A stretch of 64,000 nucleotides of DNA. Origin: a virus. Under the pieces are notes generated by a model. It was given only the letters and a program-made list of their open reading frames with translations, had not been told where the DNA came from and made no database searches. The position numbers and the translations under genes are program-made. Location of the stretch: IMG/VR virus record IMGVR_UViG_2509601026_000001; one strand, given 5' to 3'. Within the stretch, counting starts at the first letter, position 1. The number at the start of each line of letters is the position of its first letter. Below, piece after piece: positions 4,212 through 38,017 of the stretch.

Positions 4212-4569
4212 ATAATCCTTTAGCTGATTGCAAAAATTCGATAATCGCTTTTGCTTGGGCAGGTTTAATAGAAAGTGTTTCAGAGAAAGCCTTGATTCTC
4301 TCCTTGCGTAGATCCTTTTCTACAACAGGAGTAAGTTGTAGGGTTAGCTCACTCCTGATTTGATCCTTCTTATTTTTGATGTATATTTCATGAAGCTTTT
4401 CAAGCTCAGGCAAGGATTCGGATTCCAGAAGTATATCCGTCAGGAGTAAAGGCTTTTGGTCGCAAAGTGTCAAGAATGCGTTGCGAAATGATTGTTGCTG
4501 AGAAAGTTCTTTGAGCTGGTCTAAAACTTCCCATTCACTTAAGGCAAAGCGATCGAGTTGAGTAGTCAT
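4198..4569 (-). CDS. hypothetical protein
   Basis: ORF overlapping dnaN start, operon-like packing. Confidence 0.65.
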   Translation of the reverse strand: MTTQLDRFALSEWEVLDQLKELSQQQSFRNAFLTLCDQKPLLLTDILLESESLPELEKLHEIYIKNKKDQIRSELTLQLTPVVEKDLRKERIKAFSETLSIKPAQAKAIIEFLQSAKGLFGNA

Positions 4570-4745
4570 GGCGCTAAAGTTCGAGTCACAAGAAACGCAT
4601 TGATACGATGATCTTTAGGAAAGGCTGGAAGAAAACCTTGCTTTTGATTCCATTCTTTAATGGCATCAAGATGCTCGTCAACGGCCTCTCTATCATTGCG
4701 GGCCATTGCTTCTAGCAAGTCATGAATGGTAACAAGTGGGTCCAT
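4566..4745 (-). CDS. hypothetical protein (59 aa, below ORF-track cutoff)
   Basis: MDPLVTIHDLLEAMARND...; fills the gap, its TGA overlaps the next ATG. Confidence 0.6.
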   Translation of the reverse strand: MDPLVTIHDLLEAMARNDREAVDEHLDAIKEWNQKQGFLPAFPKDHRINAFLVTRTLAP

Positions 4746-24070: not shown

Positions 24071-24178
24071 AGTGATTAGCCTCTAGGTAAATGAGTAAGT
24101 TGACAGTTGGTTAAAAACCCCCTGGTCCCCGGAGGGGCCAGAGGGATACAATTGAGGTTGGCAGGAGTAAAATCTGGC

Positions 24179-29595: not shown

Positions 29596-29682
29596 AGTAG
29601 GTTATGGCGATTGCTTGAAATGAGCGATCGCCAAAAGAACCCCCCTAGCCCCGGAGGGGTAGGAGGGTCATTGGTTTAGGGA

Positions 29683-30585: not shown

Positions 30586-30701
30586 AGTTGATAAGTCCTT
30601 GTAGGTTAGGTGTGTTATTCGCAACAAGTGAAGGTTGCGATCGCCAAAAGAACCCCCTGGTCCCCGGAGGGGCCAGAGGGTAAAGGTCTAGTCGGAGTCA
30701 G

Positions 30702-31160: not shown

Positions 31161-31334
31161 CTAGAAGGCGATAAGGTCATAGTCGGATGGAACAGGCCGA
31201 ACGATAGGCTGGCGCATAGAGACTTGAACCTCGGCACCATCGGCCATAGCGGCCAGTGCAACCTGACGGTTGGTGGTGCAGTAGGTTTCAAAGCAACCAG
31301 TCGATTCGGCGTGGATAACGTGATAGTCGAACAT
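31161..31334 (-). CDS. hypothetical protein, first gene of early array
   Basis: start reassigned to MFDYHVIH, ~30 bp after hairpin at 31382. Confidence 0.6.
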   Translation of the reverse strand: MFDYHVIHAESTGCFETYCTTNRQVALAAMADGAEVQVSMRQPIVRPVPSDYDLIAF

Positions 31335-31477
31335 GATAGATAGAGGATGACAACACCCAGTGAAGAACCCTCGTCGTCCCCGGAGGGGCGAGAGGGATAG
31401 GGATAGTGCGATCGGCAGTGGGCCAGCGTAGCCAGCCATGCGATCGTATAGCGTCCCCAGAGGGGAATCGCTAGGGG

Positions 31478-31672
31478 TCAGCCCCGGCCCCCAGTCTTGG
31501 GGTCAGGTCAACCCCCAGCCCCTACCAGGGGAGAGACTACCCCCACCCCTAGCAAGGGGCCTCGCACCCTAGCCCTGGTCCCAGGGAACTGGTCAGCCCC
31601 AGCCCCACTCATGGGACTCCACCCCCCCGGCCCCCTCAAGGGGAGCCACTACCCCTAGCCCCTAGCAAGGGG
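31478..31672. repeat. seven degenerate tandem units, 27-29 bp period
   Basis: units end at 31502, 31531, 31559, 31586, 31615, 31643, 31672; each C-run, 1-3 nt, CCCC-loop-GGG(G). Confidence 0.85.
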
Positions 31673-31847
31673 AACGGTACTCTGCTGTGGGTCTACCATG
31701 CGATCGGAACGCTCACACCGCAGCCCGGTCGGCCTGCGTCAGACAGAGGTTAGCGGCCTGGTCCATGCGGCGATCGCCACCTGGCCAGCGATGACCCGTC
31801 GCAGTCTCCCTATGCTCGACATGCGATCGCTAACCCGTGGGCATCGG

Positions 31848-31925
31848 GGATCATAAAAAAATACCCCTTTTTGCCCACGGCAAGAGATATCGAGATCCCT
31901 TCTCTCCTCTCACCCCCAAATTGCC
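31848..31925. repeat. 78-bp perfect inverted repeat, left copy
   Basis: exact reverse complement of 36424-36501 on base-by-base comparison. Confidence 0.95.
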
Positions 31926-32183
31926 ATTTCGTTTTGACAGTTTTAACTAGAAAACCGAAAAGAGGGAATAGGTGAAGAGGAGAATGGGAAAAGATTGTAA
32001 TCTACTGAAAAAATTAGATTAACAAACAGAAATGCCGCCGACCTACAGGGAGAAAGATCGACGGCATTCTGTGAGTTGAGGGCCGGAGTTGCCTTTCCAA
32101 AGGCATTGTCTCTCCGGTTGAGACGATTATAACTTCAAGATGGGAAAAGCATCAACAGGTTTCAGGAATTTTTCAGGACATTG

Positions 32184-35100
32184 TTAGGAGTAAAACTGAA
32201 TTTCCTCGTTGACTTTCTTTCCACGCCTTGCAATTTCTTGAAGTGCAGCATTGTCTCCAACAGCTTGCGCCTGACGATAAGCATTTCTGAGGCCTTCGAG
32301 CTGGCCTTGGAGTCGGCCAACATGTTCAGAACGAAACTGTGGATTATGGTTTAGCTCTCGGCTTTTAAGAGTTGTGCCCTGATTGAGCATGATGGCTCGT
32401 TGTCTAGGGTCTTGAGGCAGCTGTTTAACTCCGGGCGGCAAGTAGGAGACGGAATAGACACCGTTACCAGTGGCTTCAGGGAACGGATTAGCAGGCTGGG
32501 CCTGGGTACGCTGAACGACCGGGCCGGACGGACCACCCTGCGGGATGATCATAGAGCCAACCTGCCGTCTGGCCTGGGCCACTTCATCAGCGATCGCCTG
32601 GTTTCGGACGATCTGAGCATTAGAGTCCTGCGCCCATTGCCGCTGAGCGGGGCTGAGGGCCGACCCAGAGGCCGGAGTAACGACCCTGGGGACCGGAATA
32701 TTAGCCGTAGGCACCCCGGCCATGTTGGTCGCCTGAGCATTGAGGTTTGCAATCAGGCTTTGCCCGCCCATTCCGCGGACTCCCCCTACAATTTCCTCTC
32801 TAGGAACTGGAGCTTGCCGAAAAACGGTAGGTGACTGGAGCACCTGAGAGGCGAGGGCCTGGATTTGGCCAGCCTGGGCAGAGCTTGCAGGGGCAACCTG
32901 GCGAGATGCCGCCATGTCACGGGCCATCTGGGCACGAACCTCTTGCAGTGTGATGCTGGGCTGCCCCAGCCAGTCGGCTTCTGCCTGAGATAAAGAGTCG
33001 AGCTGCCCGGTTTGGCGGTTAAACTGACGTCGAGCAGTGGGCAGACCACCCATCGCGTTTACTTCGGTCAGGTTCAGGGCATGTAGACCCCGCTGCCGCC
33101 GCTGAGCATTGAGCTGACCCAGCTCATCAAGAGGAACTTGGACAGCTGCATAGTCAGGAGAGGTGTTGACGTTCCAACCTTCGGCCCTGGCCTGCTCGAT
33201 TTCGGCACGGGCTGCGGCAAGTTTGTCTTCTGCGTTGGTGTGACGCAGTTCTCTGTACCGAGACGGGGCAGAGCCAGAGCCGACGCTGACAAAATCGTAG
33301 GGCTGGGCAGTCATGGCACCGCCACCAGCACCCTGCACAACCGTACCGGGGTTGATGATCTGCACATTGCCTCGGCTATCGGTCAGGTATTGAACCCCGG
33401 TCCTGACCTGATTGTGCTTAACGGTGGGGTCGACCTGGTGCAATGCCCTGAAGACTGGCTCAGTGCTGCGCCAAGCTGGACTATCGGGGGGGGCAGACAG
33501 TACGCCAGCATCTTCATCCATGTGCTTTGTGATGATGCTGGAGCTATCAGGAGAGCCATAGAGGCGATAGCCTTGCTTCTGCAACGCTTCGATCGGTACA
33601 TCCTGGCCATTAACCCGGACGGACCGGGCCGACGGGGCAGACTGGGGCAGGGACAATACCTGACGTACAGGATTCTGTTGGTTCCGTCGTAAGACCTCTT
33701 CGAGCGGCAGATCCTCGGTGACGACATTGGACCCCTGACGAGTCTTGGTCGTTAGGAAGTCGGGCATCTCACCCATTTCGTCAAAGGCTCTTTGAATGTT
33801 GCCCTGCAATGCCTGCTGGCTATTCATGAGCGAAATGACCCGCTCTTGGCCAACACGGGCCTGAATCTTCTTGGACATCAAATCGTCCAACTGGCCTTGC
33901 AGGTAGTCAACAGGTAGACCTTGCTGCTGCCGTTGCAGTGCAAGATTGCTGATCGCCTCATAGGCCGCATCGCCACCAGCTGCATCATATTGATCCAGTG
34001 CTCGGGTAACGTTGCCTTCTTCAAAGGCTAGTTTTTTGCGAATCAGGGCCGGGGCATCATAGAGGGCATCGCCGGGGAAGGTTGGATCGTCTGCGAAGTA
34101 GCGGGGGTTCTCCGAGCTGAACGGAGTCGGCAGCCGAGTAGGCTGGTCAGGCGAAGGCGCATCGATCGACATCCAAGCGGGCTTAGGCTCTAGCGAAGTA
34201 AATGGGCTGTAAATGTCTGAGCGAGTCGCAACATAAGCGTTCTGGTTCAGACCGTACTGGCCGGGACCACGAACGGCAGGCCTAACGCTGCCTCCGCTAC
34301 GCTGACCGTTGTCGAGAAAGCCAAGGCCGGGGATGACTCGGTTGCTTTCGTCAGTGGCAGTAAGGCTGTAGTTAGGTTGCCTTGAGCCGGAGATAAACCC
34401 ATACTCGGCCTCTCGGGCCTCGGGCACCACATAGGTCGTGTTCAGATTTAGGTCAGTGGTCACAGGCTGAGAGCTGGCAGCAATCCGAGCACGGGCAGCA
34501 GCGTCATTGCTGGCCAGCGCATCATCCCTGATGCTCCGTTGTAGGTGCATGTTGGCCAGGGATTCGGCCTGGGCCTGCTGGCCTCGGGCGGCGAGGAATG
34601 GGGTAGTCTCTGCCCCTCGGGTAAATGCAGCGTCGTAAGCGTTCCCGGTCAAAGAAAGGACCGGATTGCCGCTGGTCGGAGCCGGATAGCTGCGGCTGTC
34701 TAGATCGTCGCTGGTCTTGCCTGGTTGCCAGCCTGATACCCTATCTCGGGTATCGATCGCTTCTGAGTAGGTGCGAGGGACCAAGGTACGAGTCGCGGCG
34801 GAATGAATACCCTCATCCATGCCGACCAAGCGAGGAACTTCAGACGCATCTACGAGAGTTGACCCACCGGCACCCGTAAACACGTTGCCGTCCGGGTCGG
34901 TCCCCTGGTACATAAATCGGTTCGGCACATCCTGCACGGTTCCCGGATTTGTCCAGGCATAGGGGGAAGATGTGGGAAAGACCGGGTATTGTCTGCCGCT
35001 GGCAATGTTGCCGTAGACATCAGTAAGCGTTTGACTAACATCGACACCGGGGCTATAGCCGCCAGCGATCGCCTGCGGCCCGCCCATCTTGTCGATGAGG

Positions 35101-35678
35101 CCGGGGGCACCGGAGGCACCACCTAGATAGTCAGCAGCAGCACGACCAGCCAAACCTCCCTGGGTAAAGTCAACATTGGTCCGTGCCCCAGTTACCGAGT
35201 CAACGCCCAGGTTATAGGGCATGTTGTATTTGGCAGAGGTTGCAGCGCCTGGGTTGGCCCCAACAATGCGATCGTAGAGGCCTGGAAACTCTTTCTGAAA
35301 GCCGCCCGCTACAGGAGAACCATCGGGTGCAGTACTGCCCAGCGACCCCCAGGGCATCTCTGGACGGTAGACCGTTTCATCCGAGCCGGGAACGCTTAGC
35401 CGAGATGGATAAAGCTCTGTGGCATAGGAACCTTGACTCGGGTAGCTGGCCCTTGCCGCAGGGGCGGGGGAGCCGGTCGGCCCGTCATAGTCAGCCTGCA
35501 AGGAATTTAGAAAAGCATTCTCCTGGCTGGTGCGCTGCCTATAGGGCTTTGCTTCGATTCGCTGGACCCGTCCAACTCGGGCATCGCCAGCAGCAGCCAG
35601 TTTTTGAGCCAGTGACCCCGATTGACCGTCTAGAAAAGCGGTCAGGTTAGTAATTTTTTGAAGCGCCATGTTACCCAA
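32184..35678 (-). CDS. large low-complexity protein (1164 aa), possibly virion/ejection
   Basis: G/A/P/Q-rich, no recognisable enzymatic motif. Confidence 0.75.
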   Translation of the reverse strand: MGNMALQKITNLTAFLDGQSGSLAQKLAAAGDARVGRVQRIEAKPYRQRTSQENAFLNSLQADYDGPTGSPAPAARASYPSQGSYATELYPSRLSVPGSDETVYRPEMPWGSLGSTAPDGSPVAGGFQKEFPGLYDRIVGANPGAATSAKYNMPYNLGVDSVTGARTNVDFTQGGLAGRAAADYLGGASGAPGLIDKMGGPQAIAGGYSPGVDVSQTLTDVYGNIASGRQYPVFPTSSPYAWTNPGTVQDVPNRFMYQGTDPDGNVFTGAGGSTLVDASEVPRLVGMDEGIHSAATRTLVPRTYSEAIDTRDRVSGWQPGKTSDDLDSRSYPAPTSGNPVLSLTGNAYDAAFTRGAETTPFLAARGQQAQAESLANMHLQRSIRDDALASNDAAARARIAASSQPVTTDLNLNTTYVVPEAREAEYGFISGSRQPNYSLTATDESNRVIPGLGFLDNGQRSGGSVRPAVRGPGQYGLNQNAYVATRSDIYSPFTSLEPKPAWMSIDAPSPDQPTRLPTPFSSENPRYFADDPTFPGDALYDAPALIRKKLAFEEGNVTRALDQYDAAGGDAAYEAISNLALQRQQQGLPVDYLQGQLDDLMSKKIQARVGQERVISLMNSQQALQGNIQRAFDEMGEMPDFLTTKTRQGSNVVTEDLPLEEVLRRNQQNPVRQVLSLPQSAPSARSVRVNGQDVPIEALQKQGYRLYGSPDSSSIITKHMDEDAGVLSAPPDSPAWRSTEPVFRALHQVDPTVKHNQVRTGVQYLTDSRGNVQIINPGTVVQGAGGGAMTAQPYDFVSVGSGSAPSRYRELRHTNAEDKLAAARAEIEQARAEGWNVNTSPDYAAVQVPLDELGQLNAQRRQRGLHALNLTEVNAMGGLPTARRQFNRQTGQLDSLSQAEADWLGQPSITLQEVRAQMARDMAASRQVAPASSAQAGQIQALASQVLQSPTVFRQAPVPREEIVGGVRGMGGQSLIANLNAQATNMAGVPTANIPVPRVVTPASGSALSPAQRQWAQDSNAQIVRNQAIADEVAQARRQVGSMIIPQGGPSGPVVQRTQAQPANPFPEATGNGVYSVSYLPPGVKQLPQDPRQRAIMLNQGTTLKSRELNHNPQFRSEHVGRLQGQLEGLRNAYRQAQAVGDNAALQEIARRGKKVNEEIQFYS

Positions 35679-36423: not shown

Positions 36424-36501
36424 GGCAATTTGGGGGTGAGAGGAGAGAAGGGATCTCGATATCTCTTGCCGTGGGCAAAAAGGGGTATTTTTTTATGATC
36501 C
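36424..36501. repeat. 78-bp perfect inverted repeat, right copy
   Basis: reverse complement of 31848-31925; contains TATGAT at 36494-36499. Confidence 0.95.
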
Positions 36502-36616
36502 GTTGGATAAACTAGGTTGTAGAAGTTTTGTAGGGTATCAGCATGGAGAAACGCTACGCTGGAATGAAGCTTCTAGAGCTGATGAAGCGCCTAGAGCTAG
36601 CAAAAATTCTTAACCT

Positions 36617-38017
36617 ATGATCAACGGTTTAGGGGGTGGGGCATCCGATCTTTGGGGTAAAGCTCAGAAGGTAGGGGCCGATGTATGGAACGTAGCGCAA
36701 CAGAACTTTGGTAGGTCTGTTGTGCAAGAAGCTCTTGACCAATCAAGGCGACCAGTTATAACAGATCCGCTCAAAATTAAGCGTGAGGAAGCGGCAAAGT
36801 TACAACGGTATGCAGATGGGTTAAAGGGGACTCCGGGACATGCAGAGGCCTTAGAGAGAGCCAGCAGAGCAAGCCAGGAATTTCAGGCGGAACGGGCCAA
36901 AAACATTGCTGGCAAAACACTGGCTGATTACCTGTCAGATGCAAGTCGGTCCAAGTGGTGGTTGCTGAATGCGGCCCAGGCTGTCTCCGGCCTGGCTGGC
37001 CAGAAGATTATGAAGTCGGAAGGGTACGGCATGGGTGGGGCTTTGCTCGGCGGTGCTGCGCTGACCGGCCTCATGGAGGTGGCCACCGGGAACATTGACT
37101 TTACCAACTTGGATGAAGCGGGCAGACCCAAGGGGTACTCAACGCTATTTCCAAAGGAAATCGAGCAGGTTAACCCTGCCACCGGAGAAACGGAAATTTA
37201 CGTTGACCGGACCAAAAGCGCTAACCCAGTTGCAGAGCTGGCGGCTCGATACTTCCTGAACCGAACCGGGAACGTGCTGCCAGAGGATCAGTTCCTCCAG
37301 GAACGACCGGACGTAACCCCGGAGGAATATGCTCGATTCAAGGCCGCAAAGCGAGACAGACAATTTTTTGGGGTTGAGGATTTACCGATCAGCGTCAGTG
37401 CTCCCATCGGTGCAATTGCGGGTGGGCTGATCGATGGCAAGCTGACCAAGCCTAGCCTGCGGGGGATGGTGGCAGGGGCGGTGCTCGGGCCGATTGCAAA
37501 ACAAATAGCGATTGACGTTCCAACCGAGCTGGGGGTAATCCACGGGACCACAGAGACTCCTAACGACCCAATAGGCGAGGTTGAGTTTTTGGGGTATCGG
37601 GTTCCACTTAAAGCTGTTGTCGCTACTGCTGTTGGGGCAGCTGGCCTGAAGTATGGCGGGCGATACCTGAAAAACCAGGGAGCCAAGGTAGGTCAGATCA
37701 ACCTGAATCTTGATGATGCTGTAGGGGGAGTAAAGCCGGGGCATAGATACTCTGTCGATGAAGTGATCGCCCAGGGTGGAGGAACTTACCGGGAACCGCC
37801 GCCCAGCTCTGGCTATCAAAATCAGGTCGATAATTCAGCAGTTCAGTACGGCTTAGACCTAGATGGCACAGGCCGAACACCTGAAGAATTTGTCCGGTTT
37901 GCTTCTGGCATTCCTCCAGAAAAAAGCGGTGCACTAAACTATGAAAACTTCCGCATTGAACAAGAGCGCAAAGAAATAGAGCGGATAAATTCAGTAATCG
38001 AAAGACTTTACGGATGA
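36617..38017 (+). CDS. putative virion/internal protein
   Basis: 466 aa with glycine-zipper segments; first gene of plus-strand arm. Confidence 0.65.
   Translation: MINGLGGGASDLWGKAQKVGADVWNVAQQNFGRSVVQEALDQSRRPVITDPLKIKREEAAKLQRYADGLKGTPGHAEALERASRASQEFQAERAKNIAGKTLADYLSDASRSKWWLLNAAQAVSGLAGQKIMKSEGYGMGGALLGGAALTGLMEVATGNIDFTNLDEAGRPKGYSTLFPKEIEQVNPATGETEIYVDRTKSANPVAELAARYFLNRTGNVLPEDQFLQERPDVTPEEYARFKAAKRDRQFFGVEDLPISVSAPIGAIAGGLIDGKLTKPSLRGMVAGAVLGPIAKQIAIDVPTELGVIHGTTETPNDPIGEVEFLGYRVPLKAVVATAVGAAGLKYGGRYLKNQGAKVGQINLNLDDAVGGVKPGHRYSVDEVIAQGGGTYREPPPSSGYQNQVDNSAVQYGLDLDGTGRTPEEFVRFASGIPPEKSGALNYENFRIEQERKEIERINSVIERLYG

Follow-up and report, generated by a model that had tools for sequence, protein, structure and literature searches.

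The promoter-proximal leader transcribed from PR' of phage lambda (the 6S RNA) ends at the terminator tR', which has to be read through, and the boxB element of this phage is a 5-bp GC-rich hairpin. In the lambdoid phages boxB presents a specific pentaloop that is read by N and is paired with boxA. Tandem inverted repeats are also known from duplex DNA, as in sopC of plasmid F, in which 43-bp units, each with a short inverted repeat of fixed half-site spacing, lie next to sopAB. To our knowledge, cyanobacteria have no Rho, and how phages achieve antitermination in these bacteria has yet to be worked out. In phage HK022 the put element, about 70 nt long and composed of two stems, is located behind both early promoters and acts via the zinc-binding domain of the beta-prime subunit, with putR situated about 270 nt from its start site (PMC9378689). 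In conjugative elements, conAn is a bipartite system of processive antitermination in which polymerase gets past the many terminators of a long operon with the help of a long 5' leader RNA, and which needs a dedicated small protein together with a long structured RNA that is conserved across elements (PMC8191782).

The DNA analyzed here, referred to below as the window, is a stretch of 64,000 nucleotides (G000:C2:695000-758999) within the 793-kb second replicon of a 6.9-Mb cyanobacterium whose genome is rich in HIP1, the octamer occurring about once per kb. The window carries a prophage-like region with two arms. The leftward arm, on the minus strand, encodes a DNA methyltransferase, a polymerase processivity factor, a primase-like protein, an exonuclease and many small genes, and the rightward arm carries the genes for the large terminase and for a portal that is 35% identical to the portal of Synechococcus phage S-EIV1, the one relative that has been isolated. 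A perfect 78-nt inverted repeat (left arm 31848-31925, right arm 36424-36501) bears on both of its arms an identical, outward-pointing promoter-like site, and the identity of the two arms ends at about the predicted start of transcription. The left copy (TGGGCA-16 nt-TATGAT, 31850-31877, minus strand) has an expected transcript start near 31843 and points into a tandem array of G/C tracts at 31478-31672, which is the subject of this work; behind the right-hand copy lie a short leader and a micro-ORF, and no array. This conserved micro-ORF, of 25-28 codons (MEKRYAG..L.EL.KRLELA..LN), was the first frame behind the right-hand promoter box in all three phages in which it was read (window 36543-36620; L019 9829-9912; L032 1431-1517). 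Between the arms of the inverted repeat is encoded a protein of 1164 aa (32184-35678, minus strand) that belongs to no Pfam or PHROG family and has a single homologue, 41% identical over the C-terminal half, among 5.8 billion clustered proteins; in the sister phages described below the same slot is taken by other long proteins of 1240-1479 aa. At the end of the 1164-aa gene, a hairpin followed by UCUGUUUGUU (32031-32068, minus strand), read from the sequence and not called by the terminator scan, is likely a terminator separating this gene from the leader promoter.

The leader itself, bounded by the inverted-repeat arm, which ends at 31848, and by the first start codon, at 31334, is 513 nt long and has no convincing ORF, in keeping with the non-coding stretch of about 510 nt described in the initial annotation. 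That annotation had also put the array at the head of an early operon, a placement that stands, as the array lies on the leftward early arm downstream of the promoter-like box ending at about 31850, and it had listed flanking HIP1 or near-HIP1 sites, all of which were recovered, those at 31770 and 31823 as exact octamers and those at 31408, 31440 and 31700 with one mismatch each. Read on the minus strand, the promoter is followed by about 165 nt in which HIP1 occurs twice exactly and once as a near match, by the array, by a closing hairpin, by two near-HIP1 sites, by a terminator-like hairpin and by the first gene. The closing hairpin (31445-31477, minus strand; stem UAGCG plus CCCC, loop UCU, fold z = -2.71) lies beside a near-HIP1 site and ends the array on the gene side; it is longer than the hairpins of the array units and different from them. 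The terminator-like hairpin (31367-31396, minus strand) belongs to the C-GGA-G family, has a weak U tail (UUCUUCA) and is found 32 nt upstream of the start codon of the first early gene (31161-31334, minus strand), which encodes 57 aa and matches no Pfam family. An 11-nt direct repeat that contains a near-HIP1 site, CCATGCGATCG, brackets the array segment, with one copy on the promoter side (31696-31706) and its partner 260 nt away on the gene side (31436-31446). The leader as a whole is a patchwork of HIP1-linked repeats, some of them common to the chromosomes of the host genus.

Like the lambda PR'-tR' leader, the leader described here ends at a terminator-like hairpin, and the hairpins of the array are similar in size to boxB. 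In contrast to the lambdoid nut sites, the loops of the array are variable and the 57-aa product of the first gene is not an arginine-rich, N-like protein. Ten small early proteins included none recognizable as a candidate RNA-binding or antiterminator protein, and a host-type boxA candidate, derived from the host rrn leaders, had no match within 3 mismatches in the leader. Set against conAn, the prophage yielded neither such a small protein nor such a conserved RNA.

On the minus strand the array is made up of seven units, each 27-29 nt long, that run in the order CCCC, a loop of 3-6 nt, GGGG, 1-3 nt, GGGG(G) and a spacer of 4-10 nt, with the consensus CCCCU-nGnn-GGGG-CU-GGGGG-UnGnnnnU. Parsed on the plus strand, the same segment reads seven times as C3-7, 2-3 nt, C3-5, 4-8 nt and G3-4, the G tracts ending at 31502, 31531, 31559, 31586, 31615, 31643 and 31672. 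This parse returns exactly the unit-end spacing of 29, 28, 27, 29, 28 and 29 nt that had been claimed, and sets the minus-strand units at 31644-31672 (u7), 31616-31643 (u6), 31587-31615 (u5), 31560-31586 (u4), 31532-31559 (u3), 31503-31531 (u2) and 31478-31502 (u1). The mean period of about 28.3 bp corresponds to 2.7 helical turns. Loops and spacers differ from unit to unit, while the tracts and the period of 27-29 nt are kept. Once the tract-adjacent base is counted, every unit contains a 4-5-bp C:G hairpin with a loop of 3-4 nt, and the pair that closes this hairpin is U:A in four units, A:U in two and U:G in one, the last of which can pair on the minus strand only. As the resulting palindromes vary between 12 and 14 nt, a folded single strand fits the units better than does a dimeric protein site on duplex DNA. 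As intrinsic terminators the units are incomplete, since a stem is present but is followed by nn-GGGG and a mixed spacer, and never by a U run. A 53-aa ORF that overlies the array on the plus strand was considered as a coding sequence and rejected, since the period is not a multiple of three, the frame runs opposite to the operon and the sisters hold no counterpart.

The array is real, far beyond chance and one of a kind in the host genome. The unit pattern occurs at about 190 per Mb per strand in the 6.9-Mb genome, in which the array is the sole cluster of more than three units. When the 195 nt were shuffled 5000 times with dinucleotide content preserved, a shuffled copy carried on average 1.28 units and at most 5, compared with the seven observed. 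Self-identity within the array peaks at lags of 28, 56, 84 and 112, the strongest period being 112 nt; Tandem Repeats Finder covers just 31597-31662 (period 28, 2.4 copies), a partial call that reflects the limited likeness of the units (60-80%). The host genome contains the sequence once. In the contigs of the source sample (three runs) one variant-free, single-copy unitig of normal depth spans the array, a check for length variants that is made on contigs, which drop rare variants. A search with the array repeat against 50,697 phage records returned no relative at the DNA level.

Within the window the closest kin of the array are the dispersed C-GGA-G elements, which are minus-strand intrinsic terminators in which a GC stem with a UCC loop is followed by a U run. 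A typical copy reads CCCUCUGGCCCC, UCC, GGGGACCAGGGGG and a U run, and stands a few tens of nt before the next start codon, as in the modules at 24118-24145, 29640-29667 and 30653-30680. Their CCCCGGAGGGG core is present in 12 copies in the window, all in a single orientation, and in 5 copies, in either orientation, in the 6.1-Mb chromosome; between 23 and 37 kb there are 31 terminator-like sites compared with 14.1 +/- 4.5 expected. A covariance model was built from the seven array units and run on the window. Six of the units scored 24-31 bits and u4 scored 17.7 bits, two terminators ranked just above u4 (18.5 and 18.0 bits), and 21 of the 34 remaining weak matches fell on terminator modules, which span about 1% of the sequence. 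The model therefore ranks the terminators directly behind the array, and the earlier proposal that the two have the same skeleton proved true. Units and terminators have in common the CCCC-loop-GGGG-nn-GGGG skeleton, the strand and words of the GCUAGGGG type, and a unit corresponds to the upper CCCC/GGGG stem and the 3' G tract of a terminator, the lower 5' arm and the U tail being absent. They differ in that the array loops are variable and 3-4 nt long whereas the terminator loop is UCC, and in that the units stand in tandem at 28 nt before the first gene whereas the terminators come one per gene. Three more copies of CCCCGGAGGGG occur far from the prophage, at 73840-74250 of the same replicon (G000 C2), within a tandem repeat with a period of 129-258 nt (..ATGGCCCCGGAGGGGTTCACCGATGGGTTC..) that looks coding and unrelated to the terminators.

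Within the array a block of four units, about 113 nt long, has been duplicated (31476-31590 compared with 31591-31700), with 81% identity between the blocks over three units. In the promoter-side block the fourth unit has decayed and persists as a degenerate eighth unit (31673-31700, minus strand) that aligns with u4 and has lost its tracts. Although 24 of 85 aligned columns differ between the blocks, all nine C/G tracts persist as runs of at least 3, and when the same number of changes was placed randomly full survival of the tracts was seen in about 0.1% of trials (P about 0.001). This bears out the claim that tracts are kept while loops vary. A plain Fisher test of tract and non-tract columns between the blocks was not significant (P = 0.15).

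Folding brought out no structure of the array as a whole. The 508-nt leader was no more stable than composition-matched shuffles (z = -1.45), and single units gave z values from +0.07 to -1.46. The folding program swaps freely which G tract pairs with which C tract, so that many alternative pairings are available and no single structure is defined. Rfam gave zero matches at gathering score over the whole window, and chance-level matches only at E up to 5 over 31250-32050.

Two sister phages can be read across the equivalent place, one on a contig of a Leptolyngbya MAG (G036; L004/L018), which belongs to the same GTDB genus as the host and is the one genome with a related element, and the other a phage from a JGI metagenome (L019, L021, L030). 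Both keep the promoter box on both arms, and both have an untranslated leader of about 345-395 nt with a HIP1 site at its start. The plan of one gene and one terminator along the early arm is likewise retained, with 20 terminator-like sites in L019 compared with 5.2 +/- 1.9 expected. The sisters use terminators of other sequence families, members of which are also found within their own leaders. In L019 two copies of its own terminator module lie before the first gene (4437-4465 and about 4545-4575, minus strand), the module reading CCCAGUACGGCC, CCU, GGCCUACUGGG and then a U-rich stretch, which suggests that a terminator-bearing leader is common to the group. The array is absent from both sister leaders. 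The initial annotation had held that a functional array should be conserved in relatives that keep the dispersed hairpins; here two such relatives, with the promoter box, the long leader and the hairpins all in place, have done without it, an absence that agrees in part with the refutation set out there and counts against a role across the group. Pattern matches in the sister leaders (two adjacent in L019 and one in G036) were considered as a conserved two-unit core and discarded, as the covariance model gave them no backing; its best matches in the sisters were intergenic terminators, and the doublet in the L019 leader reached 14.5 bits with E about 1. Nor was any mark found of the genome end or injection signal that had been suggested, since the array lies between phage genes and the sister contigs continue through the equivalent place.

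Wider searches added little to this comparison. In S-EIV1 the early arm opens with a long gap free of genes, and there is no G/C-tract array. The 1164-aa neighbor retrieved no relatives from genome and viral collections. The promoter-box pattern led to G036 alone among genomes, to chance matches among metagenome contigs and to one known phage in IMG/VR, and alignment of the first right-arm gene against 173 genomes of the family or order and 401 of the class returned G036 and one weak partial match only. Five further sister contigs from metagenomes (L020, L022, L023, L024 and L026) end at or beside the promoter box. These breaks are most simply, and probably, explained by collapse of the 78-nt repeat pair in short-read assembly graphs, and with assemblies broken at this repeat few leaders are recovered.

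What the array does can be approached from its anatomy. The survival of the tracts, the maintained closing pairs with their strand-specific U:G, the variable length of the palindromes and the position on the sense strand upstream of a terminator together argue for a folded single strand under some constraint, which would most simply be the nascent leader RNA. We tentatively favor, at rather less than even confidence, the reading that this lineage-specific hairpin array, derived from terminators, affects elongation or termination in the form of nascent leader RNA. The array is a feature of a single genome, and a regulatory role would probably be exerted at the level of RNA. More secure is its origin, in that a short module related to the prophage's own terminators has been amplified in tandem and a four-unit block duplicated. 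If the leader is transcribed as predicted, the nascent RNA would present a row of seven 5-bp hairpins with an exposed G tract after each, and hairpins of this kind, without U tails, might pause RNA polymerase but would be unable to release it. The row could then raise or lower read-through both at the terminator of the leader and at the same-family terminators downstream, of which there are a dozen or more; it might do so on its own, or through a factor specific for the hairpin skeleton that it binds or titrates. That sister leaders also hold terminators of their own families makes regulated read-through at the head of the operon look like a trait of this phage group. Against the RNA reading we count the absence of the array in the sisters, the unremarkable fold energy and the many alternative pairings, as well as the silence of Rfam, the lack of a recognized antiterminator protein and the Fisher result.

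A more specific and more speculative form of this reading, to which we give a low probability, is that the array is a cis-acting antitermination device of a new kind, built from terminator decoys. Seven terminator skeletons without U tails would be transcribed first and would load onto, or re-program, the elongating polymerase, or else the decoys might soak up a termination factor that recognizes hairpins, so that the same-family terminators between the early genes would be ignored. As decoys must match the terminators, leader element and terminator family would co-evolve within each phage, and such co-evolution would explain why the sisters have other leader hairpins, other terminator families and no copy of the array.

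The main rival to a nascent leader RNA is a near-neutral minisatellite, in which a terminator fragment was amplified by slippage or recombination in an empty, HIP1-bounded leader cassette and has been tolerated with no specific function. We regard this as somewhat unlikely, though it accounts for a good deal. The array has not been kept in the sisters, block duplication of a higher order is typical of satellite growth, the 11-nt direct repeat with its near-HIP1 site brackets the segment in a leader that is a HIP1-linked patchwork, the L019 leader likewise has two copies of its own terminator module, and the leader folds no better than shuffles. Less easily reconciled with drift are the nine surviving tracts, the maintained closing pairs and a period that stays at 27-29 nt in spite of variable loops; contigs from the source culture, from which rare variants drop out, contain no length variants, and spare space is scarce in phage leaders. 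Constraint on the tracts would also be expected of an array that binds protein on duplex DNA, whether an operator or roadblock, a partition centromere, a packaging site or replication iterons. The constant period of the tandem units and the CCCC/GGGG inverted repeat in every one of them would suit such a function, as would a place beside a control region in the case of an operator. In these respects the array is like sopC, whose units are also tandem, of equal length and provided with a small inverted repeat, and unlike sopC it varies in half-site spacing (palindromes of 12-14 nt) and has no recognized partition genes. Moreover, at 2.7 turns per period successive sites would face different sides of the helix, a single helix-turn-helix protein was found, 20 kb off, the large terminase gene is 10 kb distant and the sisters have no array. 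Neither initiator nor partition genes were recognized nearby, where most proteins belong to no family. We consider a duplex-DNA site improbable.

The G-rich strand also brings to mind a non-B element, with G-quadruplexes or i-motifs, as initially proposed, or an R-loop initiation zone that stalls polymerase or primes replication. Untranslated leaders favor R-loops, and here the leader is untranslated and the non-template strand of the array is clustered in G (45% G, 14 tracts) just downstream of a promoter-like box, with a G4Hunter-style score that peaks at 1.88 in u6. However, the mean score of the array is 0.78, and no canonical G-quadruplex (tracts of at least 3 G, loops of 1-7 nt, relaxed to 12) was found on the minus strand of the window; in the array four-tract matches appear only once loops reach 16 nt. 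Between the two members of each pair of G tracts stands a C tract that pairs with one of them, and the sisters have nothing comparable. A non-B element appears unlikely. The initial annotation had also likened the array to HK022 put, that is, to a self-sufficient antiterminator RNA in which the folded array would bind RNA polymerase and render it terminator-resistant without a protein. As with putL and putR, the array stands in a leader, here of predicted transcription, with an early phage promoter on one side and many intrinsic terminators on the other, and its distance from the start is similar to that of putR. The likeness goes no further, for put is one element with two long irregular stems and the array is a row of seven mini-hairpins of 13-14 nt with no defined fold and without a two-stem element of 70 nt; put lies behind both early promoters whereas the array is found behind one of two identical promoters, the right-hand one having no comparable element; and put is conserved among its relatives whereas two sisters with the same operon plan lack the array. 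With no Rfam match in addition, we consider a put-like RNA very unlikely. Still further from favor is an RNA anti-CRISPR (Racr), in which a row of CRISPR-repeat mimics without spacers would sequester Cas6 or Cas7. The CRISPR repeats of types I-E and I-F are 28-29 nt long and combine a GC hairpin with a tail, a format that the array unit shares. Racrs are repeat mimics in phage non-coding DNA (PMC10651486). The host carries two CRISPR arrays, on C1 at about 324.4 kb and on C2 at about 365.8 kb, one with a repeat of 37 nt in at least 6 copies and the other, on the replicon of the prophage, with a repeat of about 35 nt in at least 45 copies, and these repeats are unlike the array unit. The CRISPR-DR models of Rfam match no unit, the lone weak match (16.5 bits against a gathering score of 39) falling on the closing hairpin on the opposite strand, and the units differ in loop and tail, which a mimic should keep. 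For this host the Racr reading is close to refuted.

Should the array indeed tune read-through, it would offer a compact and countable RNA device (0 to 7 units) for the control of termination in cyanobacteria, and a case of a regulatory element built by amplifying a piece of the terminator under its control. If it is only a minisatellite, it would indicate that the leaders of the little-known S-EIV1-related group of cyanophages accumulate and reshuffle HIP1-linked hairpin modules, a process relevant to the exchange of early gene cassettes.

Two minor elements of the leaders were also recorded. In the sisters an identical 24-nt word that contains CUCUUUAGCUGUUU followed by HIP1 was found at about 1470-1490 in L004 and about 4775-4795 in L019 (minus strand), starting about 10 nt past the promoter box; at that place the window has GGGUUAGC. 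The CUCUUUA core of this word resembles the enterobacterial boxA and is unlike the rrn leader of the host. The closing hairpin with its HIP1-like site (31440-31471 in the window) forms a module of GCGATCGy, rTAGCGTCCCC, a 3-nt loop and GGGGAATCGC. Three further genomes of the host genus each contain several copies of this module, 88-100% identical (loci L002, L005, L008, L010, L011 and L015), apparently also within coding sequence, and the loop alone varies. In the prophage's own genome this module occurs in the prophage leader only.
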